From positions 1 through 61,699 of IMG/VR virus record IMGVR_UViG_3300020141_000500: 61,699 nt of DNA, one strand, 5' to 3'. The translations under genes were made by a program, and so were the position numbers. The notes under the pieces are model-generated. The model worked only from the letters and a program-made list of their open reading frames with translations. It was not told the DNA's origin and did no database searches. The stretch is from a virus. Taxonomy: Duplodnaviria; Caudoviricetes. Each line of letters begins with the position of its first letter. Position 1 is the stretch's first letter. Of this stretch, positions 3,410 to 49,845 are shown in pieces.

Positions 3410-4366
3410 ATGGTAAGAACAATACCACTATATGGAAATCCAAATGGCCAAATTTTTGGTACAATAGGTTCATTGATAGAAATGAACGATGGATTGAAAT
3501 ATGTGAAAATATCCGGAGATTCTTCCAATGTTGGATGGCAAGTGTATAATGTTGCACCAACACCCACGCCTACGCCTACGCCAACTGCAACGCCAACTCC
3601 GACTGCAACGCCAACTCCGACGCCAACTCCGACGCCTACACCAACGACGGGTGGATCAACGCCAACGCCAACGCCAACAACATCAACGCTGTCAATAACA
3701 TATCAAACTCCGGATAATCAAACAGTGAGTGTTGGTTATTCGGTAGCGGGTGCTACTGTTTACGCTCCGGCTGGAGGAGCGTACACGGTGACTTGGGTAG
3801 TTTGGAACGGTAATGGTAGCCACAGTCCTAGAACTGTTTCAACTATCGGCGGAACTTTAACTGCGGGTGCGATACAAGGTTTTTCCGGTCCATCTGCAAT
3901 CGACGGTACTTTCACGGACAATGGTTCTGTCCACTACAACGACAGTGGTGGGGCGGGGTATTATAAATTTACAATAACTGTTGGTGCTGTTTCTATAAAT
4001 ACCGGATTTATTAGAGTAAATACACAAACCGTGACACTGGTTGGCACAGAGGAATGCAACTGCGCGTGCAAGGATGGTGGGGGTAACGTGGTTGGAACTT
4101 GGACACAGGGTGATACAATTTGCGAAGATGATTGCTGCAACTATGACTGCGATAATAACGGTGTGGGTTGCGTGGATGTGACCGGTGACATATCGCAATG
4201 CTGTAAGCGTTGTTGTGGCGGCGTTGATGAATATGACAACTGCGATTCTGCTGGTACGGCGTGCGGTCTGAAGTGCTACACTGACTGGTATTGCACCAGT
4301 GGAGATCGTATTTGCGAAACGTGCGATGTTTATGGATATGGTACTGTGAACAATCCACAGTTTTAA
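3410..4366 (+). CDS. putative fibre/decoration protein: N-terminal GxPxG...YxK...NxGW module, PT linker, beta-rich domain, Cys-rich C-terminus
   Basis: Long (PT)n run; 18 Cys in the region 4055-4324. Confidence 0.7.
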   Translation: MVRTIPLYGNPNGQIFGTIGSLIEMNDGLKYVKISGDSSNVGWQVYNVAPTPTPTPTPTATPTPTATPTPTPTPTPTPTTGGSTPTPTPTTSTLSITYQTPDNQTVSVGYSVAGATVYAPAGGAYTVTWVVWNGNGSHSPRTVSTIGGTLTAGAIQGFSGPSAIDGTFTDNGSVHYNDSGGAGYYKFTITVGAVSINTGFIRVNTQTVTLVGTEECNCACKDGGGNVVGTWTQGDTICEDDCCNYDCDNNGVGCVDVTGDISQCCKRCCGGVDEYDNCDSAGTACGLKCYTDWYCTSGDRICETCDVYGYGTVNNPQF

Positions 4367-5005: not shown

Positions 5006-5046
5006 TATATTAACTATTGATTATCGCGACGGCATTATCACAATTT

Positions 5047-6462
5047 ATGTCTAACACAATTGCATCACATGGAGCACCATCGGGTAGCGTATTTGGAAAA
5101 CTTGGAGAAATTATTGGCACAGACGAAGGACTCGCTTATCTAAAACGAGAATTTGATTCTCGTAATATTGGCTGGGGAGATCCGTATGTTTCAACCACAA
5201 CACCGACGCCAACTCCCACCCCAACGCCAACTCCAACAACTGGTGGAAACACGTTTCCACCGTTTTCTTGCGATGAAATACAAGTCACCGGTTCAACAAA
5301 ATGCTATGGTAATGAAGTAAAGTTGGTGTGGCGATTGGACTCACAATCTGTTACAACATGCAGCCTGAGTTGGGACCGTGCCGCAACAGCACTTGATCCT
5401 GTGGTTTTCGGTGGAAATGTAGTCGCAGCAACATTAACAAGTGGACAACAATCTTATATATTTAAATCAACTAAACAGGCTGACACATATATTATTTCAT
5501 ATATGCGCACAACAAATGTTCCAGATACTGTAAGAATGCAGGTGCGTACATCTTTTCCGTCGCGTGCCGTGAAAAAGGCACAACTATTTTCATATCGTTC
5601 TGGTTCATACACAACAAATTTGAAAGTTTTTAATGCTTTTGGATATTATCAATATCATACCAGAAATCTTACTACAGGTGGATCTGATAATGTCAGTCAA
5701 ATTATCAGTGGCTCCGTAACTCAATTTTTAACAGGTTCTGGAGCATTTCCATGTGTTGATTTGTTGGAAGTTGTGAGTTATGATGATGTTTTTTCATTTG
5801 ATCCAGAAGATGTTGTGGACTGTGTTGCCGCACCAACTCCAACTCCAACAGCAACGCCAACAGCAACGCCAACGTCCACTCCGACACCAACACCAACGCC
5901 GACACCAACTCCAACAGCAACTGCGGGTGGATCAACCCCAACGCCGACACCAACTGGTGGAACAACCCCAACACCGACTCCCACACCAACAGCAACGCCT
6001 ACGCCTACGCCTACGGCAACGCCTACACCGACGCCAACGGCCACTCCGGTTCCAAGTCAACGAATATGGATGGACTATGATTCGGTTGGTCGAGTATCTG
6101 CATCGTGGGAGAATTCCGGTGGAGGATCGACGAATGTGTCTTCAACTGGAACTCCATACACCACTGCTGTTGACGGAGTTTGTATTGTTCAAAATTCATT
6201 GCGTCTTGTGTATGGAACAAATTTGAGAACTTCCGCATGTGCATCAACATCAGACCCAAGAAACGATGCTTCGCGTCAAATTGATGCAACTTGCAATCAG
6301 CAGGGTTATTACAATTTTGATTATACCGACTCGTATGGTGTAACCAGAAACGCAAGTAGCACGTCCGGAACTCCAAATGGAAAAGTATATTCTGTTGCGT
6401 GTGGAGTTGCGATAACAGCCCAGTACACAGGAACCGCTGCCACGTCATCTCGTGTTTGTTAA
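5047..6462 (+). CDS. putative fibre/decoration protein with the same N-terminal module as 3410 and two PT linkers
   Basis: ATG at 5047 aligns with the start of 3410 ([13 protein letters not shown]...YLK...NIGW); PT runs at about 5190-5240 and 5830-6050. Confidence 0.7.
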
Positions 6463-9444: not shown

Positions 9445-12093
9445 ATGTCTAATCAGAAAACATCTCAACTTCGCAGGGTAAGTGGTAGCCAGCTTGTTTA
9501 TGGCGATTTGATTCCGTTGATTGATGTTAGTGAAAACACATCGCCAACCGGAGAAACCAAAGCAATTTCTGCTGGTGATTTGGCTTCATATGTTGTATCT
9601 GGTGGATTCTTGGAAGTATTCACGCCAATGCATGGCTATCAATCCGCTAATGGACTTGTGTTTGACCAAAATATTGCACCGGAGTCAGATTTGAATTTGC
9701 GTTGTTATGGAGAATTTCCAGAAGTTGGAACAGAATTTAGTTTGATGGTTCGTGCATTTATTCCTTCTTCCATGTATCCCGATCCACCAGTATCTCGTGC
9801 AATTTTTGGTATAGGAGAATCTCAAGAAACACTAACGTCTGGCAGTCTGGTTGTGTCTGCCAGTCAAGCCGCATATATTGGAATGGAAGACAATGATTTG
9901 ATTTGTTATACATACGATGGAATTGCTGAGAAAAAAATCCCAGTGACCAATTTTATGTGTGATTACGAAGACAAAGTTTTTGAGGCAGTTCTAACCAGAG
10001 ATTCTTCTGGTACTTTGAAGTTGTATTTGAACAGTACATTGATTGGTACATTGAGCGGTTCTGCAACACCAATTTCATCATCATATGTGGTTATGGGCAA
10101 TGGACATTCTACTGCGTTCAATATTGATTGTACCATTTATGAAGCTCATGTATTTAATACAGAATTGACCGCCAACAAAATTAAAAGCATGTTTTATAGT
10201 GGTGTAAATAATTCAGATACAACATTGATTGCTTCTTATACTTCACCAAATTTAAATCCAGGACCAACTCAATGGTTGGATTCAAAAGGAACAAATCATA
10301 TTTTATTACCAGTGTCTGGTGCAAGAGCAAGCAATCCAGATAAAGAATTTAGTTTGAGATTCAAGAGTGATGGAACATCTAGTTATCTTGGAAATGGAAC
10401 AGAAAGAGATATTCTTCCAGATAATTATGTTTTGACAGATGCATTTGTTTATTCAACTGGTTCTCCATTGTTGTCAATTGGATCAACATCTTCTGTTGCG
10501 CCAGTTGGAGCAAGTGGAATACATTCATGGAACAACAATAGAGTTCCATTGACCAATGCAATTTACAGCAGAAACAATCTGCAATTATTGGAATTGGGTG
10601 TAGCACATACTGATAAATCAATTTATGTGTTTTATAGTTCAAGTGCAGCACCATGCACATTTAGTTTTGAAGGATATATTTCTGATTATGGTCCATCAAC
10701 ATATTTTCCACCAGCACCTGTAATCGTAAGCAGTTTGTATGAAACTGCAACAAATACTATACCATATAGTTATCAAATTTTGGCTACAAATTATCCACTG
10801 ATTTATAGTGCATCCAATTTACCAAATGGTCTTTCGTTGAATAATTTAACCGGTGTTATTTCTGGTACTCCATCCGCCGCTGCAAATATATACTATGTTC
10901 ATCTGTTTGCTGCAAACTATGATGCAACTGGAAGTGCGTTTATGACCATGTCGCTGGCACCTGCTCCAACACCAACACCAACACCTACTCCGACAGCAAC
11001 GCCGACGCCTACTCCGACAGCAACACCTACACCAACCAGTGGTGCAACGGCAACTCCTACGCCAACCAGTGGCGCAACAGCAACGCCGACGCCGACTCCG
11101 ACAGCAACCAGCGTTGGACCAACAGCAACACCGACAGCAACCAGCGTTGGACCAACAGCAACACCGACAGCAACGCCGACAGCAACAGCAACGGCAACGC
11201 CGACCCCAACGGCTACATCACAGACACCATTCGTAGATGTTGGATTTATAATAGAACCCTCTCCTGGTAGATTTGACGTGCATTCTTCGGCATATGCATA
11301 CTCACAAACATTTAGTTCACATACAATAGAATTGAAGTCTGCCGCATCGGAAGCCGGTCTTGCCGCTGCGGGATATGTTGCAATTGGAACAAACAACGCT
11401 CCTCCAAGCAATGTTCCCACAAACAGCGATTACTTGATTGTTATAAATGCCCAAACTGGGATCGGATCGACTCCTCCGTATTGGATCAGAGCCAGAGCAA
11501 GCGTTACAACTAATACCGGAACTTATTATAGTAGTGAACAAACTTACAATTTTGGGACCGGTGTACCAATGACGGCAACGCCGACGCCAACAGCAACGGA
11601 AACACCAACGGCAACACCAACGGCAAGTCCGACTCCGACGCCGACCCCAACAAACACGGCGGGCGGTCCAACTGACACGCCAACAGCAACACCAACGGAA
11701 ACGCCAACTCCAACCGACACGCCAACAGCAACGGCAACTCCCACTCCGTCTCCGACCCCAACAAACACGGCGGGCGGTCCAACTGACACGCCAACAGCAA
11801 CACCAACGGAAACGCCAACTCCAACCGACACGCCAACAGCAACGGCAACGGAAACGCCAACTCCAACCGACACGCCAACAGCAACACCAACGGAAACGCC
11901 AACTCCAACGCCAACGGAAGCGCCATGTCATTTATGGACATCTACGGGCGATGGACAAAGTGTAGTTATGAGTGGCGCGGGCTGTGGTGGTGGCAATATC
12001 AACGGGATGTTTAACACTGGTGATACTATATGCTTGGCGAGCGGTTTCTCGCCAGCGGGATCTTGGACTGACGGCGGCGGGGGATCTTGCTAA
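9445..12093 (+). CDS. virion fibre-like protein: LamG/concanavalin-like domain, He_PIG-type Ig repeat, two long PT linkers, small Cys-containing tip
   Basis: [14 protein letters not shown]...[12 protein letters not shown] (LamG-like); [23 protein letters not shown] (Ig-like); PT tracts; ATATTTATA at 9423. Confidence 0.75.
11641..11849 (+). repeat. coding direct repeat, period 111 bp (98 bp identical)
   Basis: ccgaccccaacaaacacggcgggcggtcca... occurs at 11641 and 11752. Confidence 0.85.
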
Positions 12094-15555: not shown

Positions 15556-16667
15556 GCTATGATTATCTTATAGTAGGTGCCGGATTCTTTGGTGCGATTT
15601 GTGCTTACGAACTTAATAAAATAGGCAAGAAAGTTATTGTTATAGATTCTCGTGATCATGTTGGAGGAAATTGTTATACAGAAAACAGAGACAACATAAA
15701 TCTTCATGTATATGGTCCGCACATTTTTCATACATCAAACGAAGAAGTGTGGAAGTGGATAAATCAGTTTGCCACATTCAACAACTTTGTATATACCCCC
15801 GTCGCAAACTATAAAGAAAAATTATATGCTCTTCCATTCAACATGTGGACGTTTTATCAAATGTGGGGAGCAACTTCGGAAATAGAAGTAAAAGAAATTA
15901 TTGAAAAACAATCATCTGTTATAACAGGCGAGCCGAAAAATCTTGAAGAGCAAGCAATCAAACTTGTTGGACATGATGTATACAACACACTTATTAAAGG
16001 TTACACAGAAAAACAATGGAGAAAATCGGCCAAAGAACTTCCTAAAGAAATTATAAAACGACTACCTGTTCGTTATACATTTGATAATAATTATTTCAAT
16101 GATAAGTATCAAGGTATACCCGTTGGTGGATATACAAAAATATTTGAGAAGTTGCTTGAAGGCATTGAAGTAAGATTAAACACGGATTATTTTACAGCGG
16201 AACTACCAGAACACATCAAAGTTATTTATACTGGTCCTATTGACAAATATTTTGGTTATAAGCACGGCAAACTTGAATATAAAACTGTTGAACTTGATCA
16301 TATGAAAATAAACACTTCAAACTATCAAGGCGTTGCTGTGATAAATCACACAGATAAAGATGTGCCTCACACTCGTACCATAGAACACAAACACTTCGAG
16401 AAATCGGACAGCCCAGTTTCTTGGGTTAGCTGGGAAACTCCGGTTGAATATATTCCAGAAAAAACTGAACCATATTATCCAGTGAATGATGCCAAGAATA
16501 CAGAAATATATAACAAGTATAAAGCAGATGCTTTACTTGAAGATAAAGTTATTTTTGGTGGAAGACTTGGTGAATATAAATACTATGACATGCACCAAGT
16601 AATTGCCAGTGCATTGGAGTGTGCCAAACAATTGACATATCTCAATACGTGGCATCCAAACTTATAA
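15552..16667 (+). CDS. glf: UDP-galactopyranose mutase
   Basis: DYLIVGAGFFG, HVGGNCY, YGPHIFHT, YTEKQW, EPYYPVND and GRLGEYKYYDMH motifs. Confidence 0.95.
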   Translation: MSYDYLIVGAGFFGAICAYELNKIGKKVIVIDSRDHVGGNCYTENRDNINLHVYGPHIFHTSNEEVWKWINQFATFNNFVYTPVANYKEKLYALPFNMWTFYQMWGATSEIEVKEIIEKQSSVITGEPKNLEEQAIKLVGHDVYNTLIKGYTEKQWRKSAKELPKEIIKRLPVRYTFDNNYFNDKYQGIPVGGYTKIFEKLLEGIEVRLNTDYFTAELPEHIKVIYTGPIDKYFGYKHGKLEYKTVELDHMKINTSNYQGVAVINHTDKDVPHTRTIEHKHFEKSDSPVSWVSWETPVEYIPEKTEPYYPVNDAKNTEIYNKYKADALLEDKVIFGGRLGEYKYYDMHQVIASALECAKQLTYLNTWHPNL

Positions 16668-16844
16668 TTGATATATTTTATTGAGACATGTAGTCTCATG
16701 CATGTGACAAAATGATACACATAAAATATGTATTTTTTATTTGTTACGAGGTAAGAGTGTGACATTACATTTGGCACGAAACATGATAATGTGTATGTGC
16801 CGATGTTCATAATGAAGTCGGCATAAATAAAGGATACAATAAAT

Positions 16845-17291
16845 ATGTCACTAACTAAATACACACGGGATGAGTTTCTCACCCCTTTTGATAGATTGTT
16901 TGATGAAGTTTTCAATAACTTCGGAGTAACACCATATGCTGGTTCATATACAAAAACCAGTTTTCCCAAAGTGGATGTGGTTGAATATATAGATAAACTT
17001 GTTCTAGAAGCAGATGTTGCTGGACTAGACAAGGAAGATGTAAGTGTTGAACTAGAAGGCGATACTCTCACCATTCGTGGTGGAAAGAAGCCAGCATCAA
17101 CTGAAACAGACAATAATGCTCGTTATGTTTATAGAGAAATAAAGCGTTCAAGTTTTGTTCGCTCTTTTGCTGTTGGCGAGGGTATTGATAAAAGTAACAT
17201 AAAGGTTGATTATCAAAATGGAGCAATCAAGATTATATTACCCAGAATTAAGATTGAAGAACAAAAGCCACAAAAAATCAAGTTGCTATAA
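16845..17291 (+). CDS. hsp20: Hsp20/alpha-crystallin small heat-shock protein
   Basis: PKVDVVE, ADVAGLDKEDVSV, REIKRSSFVRSF and YQNGAIKIILPR motifs. Confidence 0.92.
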   Translation: MSLTKYTRDEFLTPFDRLFDEVFNNFGVTPYAGSYTKTSFPKVDVVEYIDKLVLEADVAGLDKEDVSVELEGDTLTIRGGKKPASTETDNNARYVYREIKRSSFVRSFAVGEGIDKSNIKVDYQNGAIKIILPRIKIEEQKPQKIKLL

Positions 17292-17329
17292 GATAAATGT
17301 TGACAATTGATATATCTTCATACAATATA

Positions 17330-17447
17330 TCAGTCTTAAAGGTTATATAAAGTTCCAATTCTTATGATAATTGGATGGTGGAGGGTGATGTTGAGTTCAA
17401 CCACCCCTAATTAAGCCCCACAGAAATGTGGGGTTTTTTGTTTTTTT
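17330..17447 (+). ncRNA. candidate small structured RNA
   Basis: TTGACA at 17300 upstream, two hairpins and a terminator; no long ORF. Confidence 0.3.
17413..17447 (+). terminator. intrinsic terminator
   Basis: gccccaca-gaaa-tgtggggt followed by T tracts. Confidence 0.85.
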
Positions 17448-17528
17448 CTATGAGTTGTATATATTTATTGTTATAACTTTATACAAAAATATATGAAAAA
17501 ATCAGAATTAAAGCAGTTGATTAGAGAA
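17429..17528 (+). repeat. 100-bp direct repeat, copy 1 (terminator tail, promoter motif, first 12 codons)
   Basis: 99/100 identical to 18220..18319. Confidence 0.92.
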
Positions 17529-18170
17529 GTTGTGCGAGAAGTATATTCTCAACAAGACGAAGGTCTTGTTGATAAGATTGGAGATTTTTTGACAGATCCA
17601 ACCGGAAGAAAGAGAAAAGCGGCGGATGCGGAAAGTCGCGAGGAAGAAAAATCTAAAAATGAAAAATTTAAACAATTTAAAGATACGATTCAACATAACT
17701 TAAAATCTATTCCTAAATATGTTGAGGCATTTACTGCCAAAGCACGTGAGGTTTATAAAGACGCGGAAGAAGCAAGAGAACGCGGTCACGGTAGGTCCGG
17801 ACCACAGTATCATCAAGGAAACGGCTATTATTCACGTGACGCTGGTCAAGATTATGAGTATTGGGAAAAACGCACTAAGGAACAAGACGCGGCACAAAAA
17901 GATAGTTATGACAATTGGAGAAGAAATTTGAAATCAATAGAACAAAAGTATGAAGATATCAAAAAATTTATTGATTATATTCAGGGACAATTTAGAACTG
18001 GTATAAAAGAGCTTGAACAATATGATAGCTATGATTCCGCCAAAAACATGTTTGCAAACTCCGAAGAATACACCAACGACCGGATTGACCGCATAGAGGA
18101 ATTTCGCAGTGAATATAGTATAAGACCCATAGGATATGAAAATGAATTTAAAAAGCTAGAAAAATTTTAA
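17493..18170 (+). CDS. MKKSELKQLIRE-leader protein (putative internal head protein)
   Basis: Leader shared with 18284 and 40703; highly charged helical body. Confidence 0.7.
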   Translation: MKKSELKQLIREVVREVYSQQDEGLVDKIGDFLTDPTGRKRKAADAESREEEKSKNEKFKQFKDTIQHNLKSIPKYVEAFTAKAREVYKDAEEARERGHGRSGPQYHQGNGYYSRDAGQDYEYWEKRTKEQDAAQKDSYDNWRRNLKSIEQKYEDIKKFIDYIQGQFRTGIKELEQYDSYDSAKNMFANSEEYTNDRIDRIEEFRSEYSIRPIGYENEFKKLEKF

Positions 18171-18201
18171 TAACTTAATATAACACACATATTACACAAA
18201 G

Positions 18202-18238
18202 AACCCCAAACATAAAGTTTGGGGTTTTTTGTTTTTTT
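18202..18238 (+). terminator. intrinsic terminator (26 bp identical to 18937..18962)
   Basis: aaccccaaac-ataaa-gtttggggtt plus T tract. Confidence 0.85.
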
Positions 18239-18319
18239 CTATGAGTTGTATATATTTATTGTTATAACTTTATACAAAAATATATGAAAAAATCGGAATT
18301 AAAGCAGTTGATTAGAGAA
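18220..18319 (+). repeat. 100-bp direct repeat, copy 2
   Basis: 99/100 identical to 17429..17528. Confidence 0.92.
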
Positions 18320-18883
18320 ACCGTTGAAGAAGTGCGCGTCATCAGCGAAGCCAATAAGATTGCAGCATATCTTAAATCAAATCCAAGATTGGTTAAATCG
18401 TTAATGGCACATGGTGTATTAACAGAAGCAGAAATGGGTCGTCGTGATTTTCTTAAAAAAATGGGAATGGGTCTTGCTGGGGCGGGACTTACCGCTTCCG
18501 GACTTAAGGGAGCTACTACTGGTGAAGGCTTGCCAGATATGAAGAGAGCATACACGGCACTGGACAGTAAATGGGCGCAAGACGCAATAATGAAAGAATT
18601 TAATTATGACGATACTCCAAGTTTACGAAAAGCATTCATGGCAGAACTGCGTAAAGTGTTTAATATAATGGAAAAATCTCTAAAAGACGTTTCTTCAAAA
18701 TCATTTGGCCAAGCTATAGCTGTACGAGTAGATGCTATCAATGACGAAGCCGAGCAGGGTCGCGCACATTCTGGTAAAAACCTAGAAAATTTGGATCTGG
18801 GATTAAAACGACTAGTCATTCGGGAACTTGAACGTGTTCAAAAAGATCTGCACTTCGCGTTGGCAGAAATATGTGGTTGGTAA
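18284..18883 (+). CDS. MKKSELKQLIRE-leader protein with internal twin-arginine signal-like segment
   Basis: LTEAE-MGRRDFLKKMGMGLAGAGLTASGLKGA. Confidence 0.75.
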   Translation: MKKSELKQLIRETVEEVRVISEANKIAAYLKSNPRLVKSLMAHGVLTEAEMGRRDFLKKMGMGLAGAGLTASGLKGATTGEGLPDMKRAYTALDSKWAQDAIMKEFNYDDTPSLRKAFMAELRKVFNIMEKSLKDVSSKSFGQAIAVRVDAINDEAEQGRAHSGKNLENLDLGLKRLVIRELERVQKDLHFALAEICGW

Positions 18884-18936
18884 TTATTCTAATTAGTTAA
18901 ATTCAAAATCTAATAACATTATAGTACAATCAACAA

Positions 18937-18969
18937 AACCCCAAACATAAAGTTTGGGGTTTCTTTTTT
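18937..18969 (+). terminator. intrinsic terminator
   Basis: Same hairpin as 18202, followed by a T tract. Confidence 0.85.
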
Positions 18970-18994
18970 ATAGTATATACTATACTTATATACT

Positions 18995-20512
18995 ATGAAC
19001 TTTTTAGCATTTTTAGTATTATTGAGTGCAATAGCAATATCTGCATGCGGTGCATATTTTAGTATCGTTGGATTAAAGTTGTTGTTTGTTGGTGGCGGCA
19101 TATCCATTATAATAATGGGAATTGCTCTTGAAGTTGGCAAATTTATTACCGCTACGTTTTTAAAACAAAAATGGAATGATATAACTTTGTGGATGAAAAC
19201 ATATATGGTTTTAGCCACAATGATACTTATGCTCATAACATCAATAGGTATATATGGATATTTGAGTGCGGGATATACCGCCACTTCTATTGCTGTACAA
19301 GGCTATGAACATCAAATAGAAGCAAATATAACCAATATAAAAGATATTGAGAAAGAAATAGCGTCTTTGAAGACATCAACTTATAATGAAGCAGAAACAC
19401 GGTCTATCGAGGACAACAGAAAGAAAATAATTGAACAGCGTACTTTGCTTATAAATCAAAAGAATCAGCAAGCAGAAACTATAAGAAAATCAACTGATAC
19501 AAACAGAGATGCGTCGTCTGATATAATGTCGGCAAAACAAGCATTGGAATTATCTAAATCATCTACAGATTCTGATATTGGTAGAGAACTTGAACAAATC
19601 AAGCTGTATAATTCACGACTTGAGATATTGGACAAAGAAGTACAAAAATGGATAGACCAAGGAAGTGGAAACATGTTCAAAAAAGGTGGCTTGGATAAAG
19701 CCCGAGAAATCAAACAATCGCAGCAGAAAGAACGTGATGACATTGATGCTCAAATAAAATCTTCACAAGACAGAATGGAAAAACTTCGTCAGCAATATGC
19801 TGGTCAAGTAAAAGAATATAATGATCGTGTGGCAGCAATTGAATCTCGTAGCAGATCTCAAAGAAGTGAAATTGACGCTAATATAAAAAATACTGAAAAA
19901 GAAGCTGCCGAAATTGCTGCGTCTATAATAGCATACAACAAAGAAACAGATGAAAAGATTGTTGCATTAAACACCAAAAAAGGTGAAATGACTGAACAAA
20001 GTAAACAAAAGATAACCGAATATCAAAATAATATACAAACGTTGCGAGCACAAAATACCGAAACACAAGAAAAGATTGTTCATACAGATGTTGGTACATT
20101 CAAGTTTATTGCGAAAAGTCTAAACATTCCATTGGACGATGCAGTTAATTATTTTATTTGGGCAATTATTGGAGTGTTTGATCCATTGGCAATATGTTTA
20201 ATTTTGGCGTTTAATGCATTGATTAAAAAAGATGAAAAATCCGAAAATAAACAACAACCAAAGACTGTGACAGAGCCAGAACCAACATCAACGCCGACTC
20301 CGACTCCGACGCCGACACCAAATCCAACCCCGACTGCATCATCCGAACCATCATCCACGCTGGTCGTAGAAAATATTTTGGTACAAGAACCAATTGCAAT
20401 TGATGCTATATCATCAGAGTCAGTTGATATAGACATACCACACATAGCATCGCCGCCCAAAGCACCAACCGCTCCACACGGAATAAAAAGCGGAAAAGTG
20501 TCTCCAAGATAA
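18995..20512 (+). CDS. membrane protein with about 3 N-terminal TM helices, long coiled coil, C-terminal TM helix and PT tail
   Basis: Hydrophobic segments at the N-terminus and at YFIWAIIGVFDPLAICLILAF; E/K/Q-rich middle. Confidence 0.75.
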   Translation: MNFLAFLVLLSAIAISACGAYFSIVGLKLLFVGGGISIIIMGIALEVGKFITATFLKQKWNDITLWMKTYMVLATMILMLITSIGIYGYLSAGYTATSIAVQGYEHQIEANITNIKDIEKEIASLKTSTYNEAETRSIEDNRKKIIEQRTLLINQKNQQAETIRKSTDTNRDASSDIMSAKQALELSKSSTDSDIGRELEQIKLYNSRLEILDKEVQKWIDQGSGNMFKKGGLDKAREIKQSQQKERDDIDAQIKSSQDRMEKLRQQYAGQVKEYNDRVAAIESRSRSQRSEIDANIKNTEKEAAEIAASIIAYNKETDEKIVALNTKKGEMTEQSKQKITEYQNNIQTLRAQNTETQEKIVHTDVGTFKFIAKSLNIPLDDAVNYFIWAIIGVFDPLAICLILAFNALIKKDEKSENKQQPKTVTEPEPTSTPTPTPTPTPNPTPTASSEPSSTLVVENILVQEPIAIDAISSESVDIDIPHIASPPKAPTAPHGIKSGKVSPR

Positions 20513-20598
20513 AATTCTTTAAATTTTATTTTTTATATATTGACAATATAAACATTTAGCATATATATGTGAATTGTATATACGACTATTCACAAAAT

Positions 20599-21213
20599 AT
20601 GAGTTACAAAATTGTCAAAAATAAAGATATTCTACACAAAAAAACCGAACCAGTATCAACAATACAAGAAGGTGAAGAAATAGCCAAAAAATTGATCGAG
20701 GCTTTGGATACACTTTCACATGGTATTGGTCTTTCTGCTATACAAATAGGAATACCCAAGGCGGTATCAATTGTAAGAGTTCGTAAAGATAATCCTCCGA
20801 TTATTCTCATGAATCCTACTATTGTAGAAGCAAGTAAAGAAAAGCTCATCTTTACTGAAGGTTGTATAAGTTTGCCAGGCAAGCTTACCAACACAGTTCG
20901 TTCATTGAAAGTTACTGTATCCACTCTGAATCATGCCAATCCTCTTTCATTTGGTCCAGATACAGACCCAATCACGCAAGAATCTGTTGGCAAGGACTTG
21001 GGTTTGCTTGAAAGCATCTGCATTCAACATGAAACTGACCATACCAATGGTGTATTGATGATTGATGAAGGTGTTCGTTTTGTTCCTGTAGTAGATAAAA
21101 AAGTGAAATATGGAAGAAATGATAAAGTTATGGTAGAAAAAGCTGGAGAAACTCAATATATAAAATACAAGAAAGCCTTGGAACTCGTGGAGCAAGGCTG
21201 GGCAATTCTATAA
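20599..21213 (+). CDS. def: peptide deformylase
   Basis: All three PDF motifs present: GIGLSAIQ, EGCIS, QHETDH. ATG at 20599 preferred. Confidence 0.92.
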   Translation: MSYKIVKNKDILHKKTEPVSTIQEGEEIAKKLIEALDTLSHGIGLSAIQIGIPKAVSIVRVRKDNPPIILMNPTIVEASKEKLIFTEGCISLPGKLTNTVRSLKVTVSTLNHANPLSFGPDTDPITQESVGKDLGLLESICIQHETDHTNGVLMIDEGVRFVPVVDKKVKYGRNDKVMVEKAGETQYIKYKKALELVEQGWAIL

Positions 21214-21214
21214 T

Positions 21215-21367
21215 ATGAACATTGACATTGATAACCTTGAAGAAATAAAAGAACTACTTAAACACGCACTTGAACGACACAGTTGGCCAGCCGTTGAAGA
21301 TGCTCTAACAATACTGAAAGAAGAACTCGGTTATGAAGCCGATGAACTTGAAGAAGAGGAGCAATAA
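21215..21367 (+). CDS. small acidic hypothetical protein, 50 aa (not in ORF track)
   Basis: MNIDIDNLEEIKELLKHALERHSWPAVEDALTILKEELGYEADELEEEEQ exactly fills the gap between def and 21371. Confidence 0.7.
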   Translation: MNIDIDNLEEIKELLKHALERHSWPAVEDALTILKEELGYEADELEEEEQ

Positions 21368-21370
21368 TTT

Positions 21371-21646
21371 ATGTGGATAATAGTAACATTAATGGTTTTG
21401 TTTTTCATCTCAACATGTGCGTTGGGATTTGCGTGCTATAACATGCTAAAAAAGATTGAAGTTCACGAAGAGTGGATTGAAGAATATCGCACAGAAATAG
21501 ACAAATATCGTACAGAAATAGAAAATGTGTATAAACGCTTAAAAATGGTCGATGACAAAAACTTGTTTGAAAAAGACGATGATGTTGGATTTGTTTTTTC
21601 CGAAATACAAAGAGTGATACAAGAGTTTAATGACAGCATAAAATAA
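21371..21646 (+). CDS. small membrane-anchored coiled-coil protein
   Basis: N-terminal hydrophobic helix followed by a charged heptad region. Confidence 0.7.
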   Translation: MWIIVTLMVLFFISTCALGFACYNMLKKIEVHEEWIEEYRTEIDKYRTEIENVYKRLKMVDDKNLFEKDDDVGFVFSEIQRVIQEFNDSIK

Positions 21647-25530: not shown

Positions 25531-25980
25531 ATGAACAAGAAAGAACTTGTAGAAATCATCAGAACAGTTGTACGAGAAGAAATCAATGAATCTCTTCCTC
25601 AGTATCTCATGGAAGTATTGGCTGAACGAATCACCGCACAGCCGGTTATTACTGAGAGAAAAGAGTCAGATATACCAGTTGCACAAAGAAAAAAGCCTTC
25701 GGTCGCGTTTGAAGCGCCGATCAAGCAAGTTCCTGTTCAAGCACCAAGAACATTTTCTTCAAACCCAATATTTAACCAAATATTGAACGAGACAGTTGGA
25801 GGAATACCGGACGAAAGTTCTGTGTCTGCTCCATCTGCAATAGACACTATTAAAAATTTACCAAAAGAAGTGTTGGCAGAAAACAAGGACGTTGCTGCTG
25901 TAGCAAACGCCATGACCAGAGACTATTCAAAATTGATGAAGGCGATTGACTCCAAAGCCAAATCCAACAGACCGTTATAA
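25531..25980 (+). CDS. hypothetical protein with KELVEIIRTVVREE leader-like start
   Basis: ATATTTATA at 25509; overlaps the gp25 start. Confidence 0.7.
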   Translation: MNKKELVEIIRTVVREEINESLPQYLMEVLAERITAQPVITERKESDIPVAQRKKPSVAFEAPIKQVPVQAPRTFSSNPIFNQILNETVGGIPDESSVSAPSAIDTIKNLPKEVLAENKDVAAVANAMTRDYSKLMKAIDSKAKSNRPL

Positions 25981-26384
25981 TGATAACTGACACACAAACT
26001 TTTGGTATAACTTTACCCATCCAACATGGGCCTCGTGGTTATTTTAACCAAAGCAGAAATGTGTCGGAACAAGTAAAATCAAATCTTACTTTATTGTTAA
26101 AAACAAAAAAGGGAGAAAGAAGAATGAATCCAGAATTTGGTTCTGGTCTTTGGAGTGTATTATTTGAAAACATTACCGACGATCTGAAACCAATTATCGA
26201 ATCAACAATTCGCAAAGATATATCAAATTGGCTTAACTATATTACCGTGCAATCTGTTGATGTTCAGTACAACACAGACAACAATTATAATCGTGTGAGT
26301 GTTTCAGTCAAATATGTTGCCGCCTCAGCGGGTATATATGACCAGCAAGTTTTGAATGTACAGATGATAACAAATAACATATGA
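25980..26384 (+). CDS. baseplate wedge subunit, gp25/GPW family
   Basis: NLTLLLKTKKGERRMNPEFGSGLWSVLFE motif. Confidence 0.9.
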   Translation: MITDTQTFGITLPIQHGPRGYFNQSRNVSEQVKSNLTLLLKTKKGERRMNPEFGSGLWSVLFENITDDLKPIIESTIRKDISNWLNYITVQSVDVQYNTDNNYNRVSVSVKYVAASAGIYDQQVLNVQMITNNI

Positions 26385-47856: not shown

Positions 47857-49809
47857 ATGAAAATTTTATATATAGCTCCGCATTTATCAACGGGTGGATG
47901 TCCACAATTTTTGTTTAAGAAGATACAGGTTTTACACAAAGACCATGAGATATATTGTATTGAATATGCAGACCACGGATGTTTCACAGTACAAAAGAAC
48001 AAAATAAAAGAAATTCTCAAAGACAGGTTGATTTCTGTGAATTATGATCGCTCAAAAATAGTTGATATAATCAAAGATTTGGACCCAGATGTGGTGCATC
48101 TGGAAGAAATGCCAGAATATTTCATGGACAATGACATTGCTAAAAAGATATACATCAAAGATAGACGATATAAAATCATTGAAACATCGCATGACAGCAG
48201 CTTTGATCCAAAAGGTAAAGTGTTCTTTCCAGACCGATTGATATATGTGAGCAAATATCAAAAAGAAAATCTCAAAGAAATTGATGTGCCATCCGAAGTT
48301 TGTGAATATCCTATTCTAATAAATCCAAGAAAGCCAAGAGAAGAAGCACTAAGAGTGTTGGGTCTTGATCCAAAGAAAAAGCATGTGATGCATGTTGGTT
48401 TGTTCACATCAAGAAAAAACCAAAAAGAAATTATTGAGTATGCCAGAATACTCAAAGACCAACCAATACAGTTCCATTTCATTGGAAATCAAGCGGACAA
48501 TTTTAGAAGCTATTGGGAACCATTGATGAAAAATTTTCCATCCAACTGCAAATGGTGGAATGAAAGAAAAGATGTAGATAATTTTTATCAAGCAGCCGAT
48601 TTGTTTCTGTTTGTGTCTAAGGATGAAAATGGAGACAAAGAAACAAGTCCATTGGTTATACGCGAAGCAATATCATACAATATACCAACGTTGATTTATA
48701 ATTCTCCTGTGTATATGGGAATGTATGACAAATATGAAAATATAAAATATCTTGATTATGATGACAAGGATGAAAATTTAAACAGAATACTAAAAACTCT
48801 AAATCTAACAGAACCAAAAAAAATGCACATATTTCAATCCAATTGGGACATGAACGAACAAAAGATGTACTACTCGGTGAATACCAATGTAGATTTTCCT
48901 ATAATAGTCGCGTTGAGAGAATACAAGTCCGACGCTGTGTTGTGGTCTACCACATACGAAACTTTTCCACCAAATTGCAATTTTTGGATGATTCCTGTCT
49001 CAAAGAGTAACCGAGATTACTCCACAGAAGAAACATTTTCTGGCATAAAGCTTTGCATATACAAAAAAGAAACGGGCGAACAGATTTACGAGCAACCATA
49101 TTTTTATAAATTTGCAAATGTTCCAACGGTCACTTTGAGCAATCGTGCTCCATACTATGATAACTATACAGAATTTTTTGTTCGCGACAAATACAAAGAA
49201 TGGTTGGGCAACAAGAAGTTTGATGTTGCGGTTGACGTTGGTGCAAATGTAGGCGTGTTTACGCGATATTTGATACACAATAAAATAGCAAAGAGGGTTG
49301 TGTCGGTTGAATGCGACTCCGCCGCTTTATTTGATTTGAAAAGAAACTACGAATTTAACGACAATGTGAAAATAATTGAAAAAGCATTAAGCGACACGAA
49401 CGATCCAATAACATTTTATCACTGCGAAGAAAATCCAATCGTAAGCAGCACAATTCCACCGGAAAAGCTAAAACAACACATGGCCGGTGTGAGGGGAAAT
49501 GTGAAAACCACGGTTGATGCTGTTACAATAAGGGATCTGGTTGATGAACTTGGTCAAATTGATTTGTTGAAGATTGACATCGAGGGAGGCGAATACAAAA
49601 TTATAGAAAAGTTGGAAACCAAGTTGTTTGACCATATAAATAACATATTCATTGAATGTCATTTTTTTGAGGAAGATTATAAAGAAAAGTATGTATCTCT
49701 ACTTGAAAAGTTGCGCAACAATGGATATGAAGTAAAAGAATATCTATCGAATCAGTCGAATAATGCCGGAACCAGTGAATGTATTTTTGCTACTAAAAAA
49801 TCTCAATAA
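47857..49809 (+). CDS. GT4-like glycosyltransferase fused to FkbM-family methyltransferase
   Basis: HLSTGG, RKNQ and ETSPLVIREA; VDVGANVG and LLKIDIEGGE. Confidence 0.85.
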   Translation: MKILYIAPHLSTGGCPQFLFKKIQVLHKDHEIYCIEYADHGCFTVQKNKIKEILKDRLISVNYDRSKIVDIIKDLDPDVVHLEEMPEYFMDNDIAKKIYIKDRRYKIIETSHDSSFDPKGKVFFPDRLIYVSKYQKENLKEIDVPSEVCEYPILINPRKPREEALRVLGLDPKKKHVMHVGLFTSRKNQKEIIEYARILKDQPIQFHFIGNQADNFRSYWEPLMKNFPSNCKWWNERKDVDNFYQAADLFLFVSKDENGDKETSPLVIREAISYNIPTLIYNSPVYMGMYDKYENIKYLDYDDKDENLNRILKTLNLTEPKKMHIFQSNWDMNEQKMYYSVNTNVDFPIIVALREYKSDAVLWSTTYETFPPNCNFWMIPVSKSNRDYSTEETFSGIKLCIYKKETGEQIYEQPYFYKFANVPTVTLSNRAPYYDNYTEFFVRDKYKEWLGNKKFDVAVDVGANVGVFTRYLIHNKIAKRVVSVECDSAALFDLKRNYEFNDNVKIIEKALSDTNDPITFYHCEENPIVSSTIPPEKLKQHMAGVRGNVKTTVDAVTIRDLVDELGQIDLLKIDIEGGEYKIIEKLETKLFDHINNIFIECHFFEEDYKEKYVSLLEKLRNNGYEVKEYLSNQSNNAGTSECIFATKKSQ

Positions 49810-49845
49810 TAAAATCTCAATAATAAAATCTCAATAATAAAATCT
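49797..49845 (+). repeat. 14-bp tandem repeat aaaatctcaataat x3.5
   Basis: Units at 49797, 49811, 49825 and a partial unit at 49839. Confidence 0.92.

Follow-up and report, generated by a model that had tools for sequence, protein, structure and literature searches.

A twin-arginine-type signal behind a capsid-targeting-like leader and a candidate prohead-protease site in a protein of an uncultured T4-like phage

Introduction

Why would a phage protein carry what looks like a bacterial twin-arginine translocation (Tat) signal about 50 residues inside its chain? This question is raised by the open reading frame (ORF) at positions 18284-18883, hereafter ORF 18284, in a 61,699-nt stretch of DNA from an uncultured virus of the Caudoviricetes (IMG/VR record IMGVR_UViG_3300020141_000500), which was analysed at its full length and is referred to as the window. 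In this study, ORF 18284 is read as a modular pre-pro-protein of a jumbo T4-like phage, which would be packaged, cleaved, ejected and finally exported by the host, and we put forward this whole chain of events as a tentative reading, somewhat short of probable. Four modules can be shown in the protein and its relatives, namely a leader of 12-20 residues, a predicted helical linker ending in L/I-x-E, a putative signal peptide and a variable cargo, and a promoter-like motif common to ORF 18284 and the virion structural genes can be shown as well.

Results

The internal signal

Residues 45-77 of the predicted protein (V45 to A77, positions 18416-18514) read VLTE48-AE-MGRRDFLKK-MGMGLAGAGLTASGLKGA, with the Met51 codon at 18434, exactly as stated in the first-pass annotation of this DNA, which had proposed that head maturation exposes a cryptic Tat signal at this point. 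The Tat core RRxFLK is matched by G-R-R-D-F-L-K-K at residues 52-59, around R53 and R54, and the h-region M60-L74 consists of 15 uncharged, Gly/Ala-rich residues with a mean Kyte-Doolittle value of 1.2 over 12 residues, followed by the basic K75. Candidate signal-peptidase sites lie at T-A-S/G or K-G-A/T, none of them clear-cut. The NCBIfam model TIGR01409 (TAT_signal_seq) scores above its cut-off of 16.7 bits in the homologues P0003 (17.6), P0008 (17.7), P0011 (24.7) and P0007 (34.3, in three stretches), and the Pfam model PF10518 (Tat signal) gave no match in the window protein. With its start at about residue 49-51 of 199, the signal is internal, and it would become N-terminal only after cleavage at E48 or after initiation at Met51.

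The rarity of such a motif was estimated from the window and the fetched phage loci, 2.27 Mb together. Among 3050 ORFs of at least 80 aa (774,588 residues), four matches to RR.[FL][LIVM] with an uncharged hydrophobic run behind it were counted, namely the window protein, its homologue in locus L131, one N-terminal Tat-like leader in locus L039 and one implausible ORF. A chance origin of the motif was considered and rejected: the twin-arginine signal is taken as more than chance because the motif is rare in related phage DNA and the N-terminal 78 residues are conserved, and the Tat-type export signal in ORF 18284 looks real.

The protein family and its cargo

Through three protein searches and one metagenome scan, a family of at least 17 members with an internal signal was assembled, the window protein included. 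A phmmer search of 1.84 billion representatives found 7 proteins, among which the cargo was common to P0001 alone; longer or fused forms of residues 18-90 were not found at E <=0.01, which is weak evidence, and a scan of IMG/VR with alignment A1 gave 593 pattern stretches, none of which was confirmed as a relative. Pfam and PHROGs searches of the whole 199-aa protein returned no family, and blastn and tblastn against 50,697 deposited phage genomes returned no match to the locus, the 199-aa protein or the gp21-adjacent leader protein. A Nif11-type leader was rejected as noise (P0011, 14 bits against a cut-off of 32.3).

In P0002-P0005 and in the L131 ORF, residues 1-78 are 75-88% identical to those of the window protein and the C-termini are unrelated. 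The L131 locus is syntenic with the window (hsp20, family gene, membrane coiled-coil protein, deformylase), and its DNA is 94.6% identical over 18210-18465, from 74 nt before the ATG to codon 61, with 68-72% in the flanking genes and nil in the cargo. The distant members (P0006 and P0008-P0016, 21-28% identity overall) leave the order of the parts unchanged, and across 12 aligned members M1, K2, K3, E5, L6, K7, L9, I10, R11, E12, E15, E16, L30, E48 and G68 are invariant.

The arginine pair is kept in 10 of the 17 members. The remaining seven (P0009, P0010, P0012-P0016) have 1-3 lysines, a more hydrophobic core and an A-x-A-type end. The twin-arginine members P0011 and P0008 are homologous over their full length to P0014 and P0012, which lack the pair (E 9e-20 and 3e-19, respectively), and in these alignments the arginines stand opposite S-T or S-G, with the rest of the signal retained. 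In the best 12-residue stretch, hydrophobicity amounts to 1.2-1.4 for the window group, 1.8-2.2 for P0006, P0008 and P0011, and 2.25-2.44 for the seven members without the pair. Tat signals are less hydrophobic than signals of the general secretory (Sec) pathway; the lower hydrophobicity of the twin-arginine members and the higher values of the others therefore match the known difference between the two pathways, and the seven members probably carry Sec-type signals. The family would thus change its pathway and yet retain a signal, which argues for real export of the cargo and against jamming of TatBC; the latter had been suggested in the first-pass annotation and fits poorly with Sec-type signals in 7 of the 17 homologues. 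That annotation had also made its reading depend on conservation of the arginine pair, which is indeed kept in all 7 close relatives and is lost in the Sec-type branch.

The ESM Atlas model of the window protein has a pLDDT of 0.45, with generic helical bundles as its nearest folds, and the AlphaFold2 model from a 12-row alignment has a mean pLDDT of 53.3 and a pTM of 0.35. For a cargo without recognisable fold or family, the proposed role in superinfection exclusion is pure speculation.

As a side observation, two leader cassettes are fused in frame in P0006 (545 aa), where the second bears a twin-arginine signal, and P0007 (822 aa) contains a module of about 260 aa three times, each copy starting with RRDFLKK, and modules two and three lie directly behind I-I-E or V-M-E. 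From their sequences, both look like polyproteins meant for cutting.

The linker and the candidate cut site

In the AlphaFold2 model, a helix spans residues 3-42 (pLDDT 62-72 for residues 1-40). Within the linker, L30 and E48 are invariant in the 12 aligned members and N33 and P34 nearly so. The position two residues before the conserved Glu holds L or I in 14 of the 17 members, and T or N in P0009, P0010 and P0015. This Glu stands 4-5 residues ahead of the arginine pair in 10/10 members that have the pair, and the basic residues of the signal begin only after it in every member; were the chain cut behind it, each member would be left with a canonical signal peptide that has 2-4 basic residues.

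We take T4 gp23 to be cleaved after the Glu of its FLTE. The protein reads ...FLTE-AEIGG at this place in NC_000866. The T4 prohead protease gp21 cleaves C-terminal to Glu in L/I-X-E (PMC9026906), and Alt is cleaved at ITE-6 and LTE-619 (PMC5694885).

The leader and its link to the head module

The first 12 residues of ORF 18284 also start ORFs 17493 and 40703 of the window, and a divergent form starts the ORF at 25531. Ser4 is encoded by TCG in ORF 18284 and by AGC in ORF 40703; selection therefore acts on the leader peptide, beyond the DNA. A degenerate 12-residue leader pattern, which itself fixes the Glu at position 12, matched at least 119 IMG/VR stretches, and the window and other viral contigs together yielded at least 136 distinct leader ORFs, nearly all of them 50-300 aa long and with unrelated sequence behind the leader. 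Among the leader ORFs from the matches listed, the twin-arginine signal is found in the window's ORF only. The 132 leader ORFs of at least 40 aa among these matches are conserved to about residue 20, and 53 of them have an [LIVM]xE that ends at position 16 and 69 one that ends at position 20, where 2.2 would be expected at each position. The leader was not found in cultured phages by tblastn against 50,697 phage records.

The prohead protease Peptidase_S77 is encoded in 8 of the 10 longest leader-bearing contigs among the matches listed, the two misses being 65% and 38% complete, and both contigs of this set that are at least 90% complete encode it. The leader loci were fetched through the leader pattern and counted only where their flanks reached the protease, and the protease gene is present in 23 of them as well; the leader ORF follows it directly downstream in 16 of these, with its start within about 110 nt, between the protease and the major capsid gene. 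In locus L053 the order is portal, protease, leader ORF, acidic scaffold-like ORF and gp23. In locus L134, the terminase and the portal (Portal_T4 with an intein) are followed by a 291-aa ORF, a 99-aa ORF starting MTKSELKQLIRETINE, a 163-aa ORF starting MKDTKEILRELVEEVIEE and the Peptidase_S77 protease. The gene order of T4 is 20, 67, 68, 21, 22, 23, so that the 99-aa leader ORF of L134 stands in the gp67/gp68 position, where it takes the place of prohead core proteins. Furthermore, in the gp23 of ten relatives, the segment aligned to ...FLTE-AE of T4 reads ...AKQLIDE-ATRTG, which resembles the leader end ...LKQLIRE-T. Together, these observations point to a leader tied to head assembly.

Two further observations were made in the head module. 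The small ORF 5' of the protease, which starts MKKSQIVKAVQEVLEE in Flavobacterium phage immuto (L010, 142-363) and MKDTKEILRELVEEVIEE in L134 (16043-16534), carries leader-like variants. The portal gene of L134 (11724-14810) contains an intein (Intein_splicing, E 1.2e-14) and encodes 1028 aa, against about 631-653 aa in L137, L138 and L145.

The promoter-like motif and the cassette

The 81-nt stretch 18239-18319 is repeated at 17448-17528 with 1 mismatch, and the ORF 17493 cassette is absent at the syntenic L131 locus. The longer motif ATATATTTATTGNTATAA stands before ORFs 17493, 18284 and 40703 and before no others, against 0.16 occurrences expected. Its core TATATTTAT has 11 copies in the window against 2.0 expected, and all nine plus-strand copies lie 13-41 nt 5' of gene starts, the baseplate operon included. 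In four relatives (L134, L137, L138 and L145), TATATTTAT stands just before the portal gene and just before the acidic ORF after the protease, and it is also found about 100 nt ahead of the scaffold-like gene. From its position we infer that TATATTTAT may be a promoter of structural (late) genes and that ORF 18284 would be made alongside virion proteins. The motif is unlike the T4 late promoter TATAAATA. A sigma-70 scan of 16600-21400 gave 20 sites against 20.8 in shuffled sequence; sigma-70 sites are no commoner than in shuffled sequence and are therefore uninformative on timing. Rfam on 17200-19100 gave sub-threshold, terminator-like matches only.

A separate feature lies between hsp20 and ORF 17493 (17300-17440), where a sigma-70-like promoter was recognised by eye (TTGACA, 17 nt, TACAAT), followed by about 100 nt without a long ORF and then by the strong terminator at 17413-17436. 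The stretch is 96% identical in L131, has no Rfam match, and is a candidate for a small RNA or a leader transcript.

Table 1. Positions of the features discussed; coordinates are those of the window unless another locus is named, and functional labels are predictions
Feature	Position	Strand	Remarks
Stem-loop, terminator-like	17413-17436		similar to the two stem-loops below
Tandem paralogous cassette	17493..18170	+	same upstream element and leader; unrelated, highly charged 225-aa cargo without signal peptide
Stem-loop, terminator-like, ending the ORF 17493 cassette	18196..18232	+	16-pair stem, then T run
Upstream element, 45 nt	18239..18283	+	duplicated identically before ORF 17493; contains TATATTTAT at 18251-18259, 33 nt before the ATG
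ORF 18284, whole	18284..18883	+	199 aa and stop codon; full-length homologue P0001, 97% identical
Leader, residues 1-12, MKKSELKQLIRE	18284..18319	+	capsid-targeting-like tag; ends I-R-E at residues 10-12
Putative helical linker/propeptide, residues 13-48	18320..18427	+	ends L46-T47-E48 (18419-18427), candidate prohead-protease cut site
Putative Tat-type signal peptide, residues 49-77	18428..18514	+	R53-R54 at 18440-18445; h-region M60-L74; basic K75 in c-region
Cargo domain, residues 78-199	18515..18880	+	predicted helical; no known family; common to P0001 alone
Stem-loop, terminator-like, after ORF 18284	18936..18962	+	
Downstream neighbour, 505 aa	18995-20512		several N-terminal membrane helices, long coiled coil, further hydrophobic helix, Pro/Thr-rich tail
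Divergent leader-like N-terminus, MNKKELVEIIRTVVREEINE	25531..25980	+	ORF just 5' of the gp25/gp6 baseplate genes; membership in the leader set uncertain
Third leader ORF, MKRSELKQLIREAIEE..., 188 aa	40703..41269	+	same upstream motif
Copies of TATATTTAT	window 688, 8195, 17460, 18251, 25508, 28364, 34678, 39726, 40662; L134 11686, 18916, 20156	window copies +	

The genomic setting

The window is a fragment estimated to be about 27% complete, with nearly all genes on the plus strand. It encodes T4-type baseplate proteins (gp25-like at 25980, gp6-like at 26381) together with phoH, hsp20, a peptide deformylase and numerous glycosyltransferases, and a gene for the terminase large subunit runs off its 3' end. 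With reference to gp6 and the terminase, the closest cultured phages are Microcystis phage Mel-JY01 (43-51% aa) and the Flavobacterium 'immuto' phages (38-50%). L134 shares 93% nucleotide identity with the last 8.9 kb of the window (98% aa in the terminase). Peptidase_S77 is present in the nearest isolates and in L134, where it lies 5.4 kb past the terminase gene. The downstream neighbour of ORF 18284 has a weak Rz-like spanin match (E 0.0033) and 72% nucleotide identity to its L131 counterpart. The ORF at 25531 has a leader-like, amphipathic N-terminus (MNKKELVEIIR...) and is homologous to the ORF 5' of the gp25-like gene of Mel-JY01 (E 1e-5); a similar N-terminus is found on the ORF at the same position in Mel-JY01 and the immuto phages (L008, 1973-2503; L009, 2160-2579).

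Apart from these, long Pro-Thr repeat linkers occur in proteins at 3410-4366, 5017-6462, 9445-12093 and 20300-20460, three of which share PHROG 15511 (function unassigned), and a 15-nt unit, aatctcaataataaa, stands in three tandem copies at 49800-49845, immediately 5' of ORF 49846.

Discussion

The proposed reading may be followed through one infection cycle. The ORF 18284 protein would be made late in infection, and its leader would dock it to the prohead core as the capsid-targeting sequence (CTS) of T4 does. A T4-type prohead protease would cut after E12 and after E48, and the copy borne in the head would then start AEMGRRDFLKK..., with a normal N-terminal Tat signal. Ejected into the next host together with the DNA, the protein would meet the Tat system of that host, which would move the cargo to the periplasm or envelope ahead of any phage gene expression; in relatives with Sec-type signals, Sec would take over this task. 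In the producing cell, the uncut 48-residue propeptide would keep the signal internal. Part of this route has a precedent, as a 10-residue T4 CTS is enough for foreign proteins to be packaged and brought into the host (PMC9026906). The first-pass interpretation of a signal exposed by head maturation is thus partly supported, although we would still place it a little on the doubtful side. More tentatively again, giant T4-like phages in general may package secretory pre-proteins whose Tat or Sec signal is masked by a head-targeting propeptide up to the time of its removal by the prohead protease. The injected effectors would then be exported by the new host to its periplasm or envelope within moments of infection and ahead of any phage transcription, and the unit of leader, linker and signal may be a portable cassette for delivery, to which various cargos are joined by recombination.

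Several observations weigh against this reading. Packaging, cleavage, ejection and export are all inferred, as is every functional step. The Tat consensus is matched in its RRxFLK core, but Gly replaces the usual S/T before the arginines, and TIGR01409 gives the window copy 15.1 bits as a whole and 15.7 from Met51, slightly below its cut-off of 16.7. L/I-x-E is a short motif, with a background of 0.016 per position in these Glu-rich proteins, and no sequence homology could be detected between the leader and the T4 CTS, the likeness being one of format only (about 10-12 residues). Neither Peptidase_S77 nor other head genes were found in the 61.7-kb window, which is a fragment. The family gene is dispensable, because the close relative G013 and the complete 297-kb genome of the uncultured relative G016 lack it. 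A leader-like N-terminus on the baseplate-operon ORF 25531 fits poorly with a purely head-directed tag; either the leader is older or broader than head targeting, or the likeness is a convergence. Finally, there are extended Tat and Sec leaders which function without being removed, and late exported phage proteins, for instance lysis proteins, are common.

The last points lead to a different account, the chief competitor of the reading above, according to which the product of ORF 18284 is an ordinary exported or membrane-anchored protein of the producer cell, made late and never packaged, with an extended signal peptide or a type II signal-anchor. The signal might later be cut by signal peptidase, the periplasmic cargo might act in lysis control, exclusion or envelope remodelling, and the shared leader would serve otherwise, for example in translation, stability or regulation. 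We consider this account rather unlikely, even though long conserved N-terminal extensions are known and one of them, TIGR04519, is marginally matched by P0008 (22 bits against 20.6). The multi-pass membrane coiled-coil protein downstream, with its weak Rz-like match, gives the locus an envelope flavour; exported lysis proteins are often among the products of late phage genes; residues 1-48 are net positive, which is compatible with a cytoplasmic N-terminus; and the leader-like start of ORF 25531 is more easily accommodated. Left unexplained are the leader on soluble, unrelated proteins and on protease-adjacent ORFs of the head module, the invariance of E48, and the fact that in all members the basic residues come only after E48, with a canonical signal starting there. 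In addition, the Sec-type members have 47-60 residues before the signal, which is unusual for cleavable Sec signals.

The evidence for packaging through the leader would serve equally well if the protein is packaged and cut and its hydrophobic segment then inserts in the inner membrane as part of a conduit for DNA delivery, or tethers the cargo where the DNA enters. In other phages, conduits across the envelope are formed by ejection proteins (PMC8402733, PMC13434306). A channel former would be expected to be conserved, however, whereas close relatives lack this gene and its cargo is exchanged, and the arginine pair, the weak Gly/Ala-rich h-region and the AxA-type ends are typical of cleavable signals and not of stable membrane helices; membrane insertion is thus improbable in our judgement. 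Translation from the internal Met51 (18434), which the first-pass annotation had offered as an alternative, would give a plain Tat pre-protein, the upstream 150 nt being a leader-coding remnant of cassette recombination. A Met does stand two residues ahead of the pair in the window protein and in 7 of the 9 other twin-arginine members, and no strong Shine-Dalgarno sequence was seen by eye in the genes of this phage, so start sites cannot be fixed from sequence. Across the family, a Met within the 3 residues ahead of the first basic residue is present in 10 of the 17 members and absent in 7 (P0008, P0011, P0012-P0016). Conservation of residues 1-48 is at the protein level, and some of their positions stay invariant even among members only 21-28% identical overall; the promoter-like motif, moreover, stands 33 nt ahead of the first ATG. 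Such a start is disfavoured and appears very improbable.

Returning to the packaged and exported pre-pro-protein, its meaning would lie in the place of action. Injected phage proteins are known to act in the cytoplasm, as T4 IPI does against a restriction enzyme and Alt on RNA polymerase, or to build the entry conduit. Re-addressing of a virion-delivered protein by Tat or Sec would, if true, let a phage act on the periplasm and envelope at time zero by a new route, with possible uses in exclusion of competitor phages, defence against periplasmic or envelope immunity, or repair of the entry wound. Such a protein would moreover exemplify, in nature, a signal peptide that a propeptide keeps silent and a viral maturation protease activates. 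Probable packaged proteins of uncultured T4-like phages can be listed from sequence by means of the leader alone. If export in the producer cell holds instead, the protein is simply a late accessory protein that is exported and whose leader is unusually long, which is of modest interest.

Comparison with known systems

The nearest parallel is found in the internal proteins IPI, IPII and IPIII and in Alt of T4, which carry a CTS and are processed by gp21: as in the present family, a short N-terminal peptide is common to unrelated, fast-evolving accessory proteins of one phage. The two peptides share an MK start and an I-x-E end (MKTYQEFIAE-A in T4 IPII/IPIII, MKKSELKQLIRE-T in the window), Peptidase_S77 is present in the lineage of the window, tagged genes are scattered with variable cargo, and the 1-5 leader ORFs per complete genome are similar to the handful of CTS proteins in T4. 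In contrast to the CTS, the window-type leader is longer, being conserved to about residue 20, and unlike in the T4 internal proteins a candidate second cut site lies 48 residues in, behind which the mature part would begin with a bacterial export signal. In the portions of the literature returned by full-text searching, no T4 internal protein was found described with a mature part that starts in a bacterial export signal, and no description was found of an export signal directly behind a head-protease-type site on a CTS-like tagged protein. It is this latter combination that sets the protein apart from the T4 internal proteins and from ordinary bacterial Tat and Sec signals.

With Tat signal peptides (TIGR01409, PF10518), the window protein shares the RRDFLK core, a weak Gly/Ala-rich h-region and a basic residue in the c-region. 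It differs in that its signal lies 50 residues inside the protein and in a phage gene with a promoter motif of structural-gene type. The extended Tat leader of molybdopterin oxidoreductases (TIGR04519) is comparable in the conserved extension of about 45 residues before the arginine pair; P0008 matches this model over residues 29-59, P0011 stays below the cut-off, and the window protein gave no match at E up to 10. The idea of a captured host signal peptide, also raised in the first-pass annotation, is marginally supported by this one P0008 match. The family departs from TIGR04519 in that its first 12-20 residues are a separable tag, found also on proteins without a signal, and in that its cargo is no oxidoreductase.

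Promoter/stem-loop cassettes mediate modular gene shuffling in T4-type phages, and the present locus is similarly built from a stem-loop, a conserved upstream element, the leader, a variable cargo and a further stem-loop, with the upstream element and leader duplicated in tandem. It differs from these cassettes in two respects, since the conserved unit of the window reaches into the coding region, where it comprises leader, linker and signal, and the motif is of the structural-gene type and not of the early sigma-70 type.

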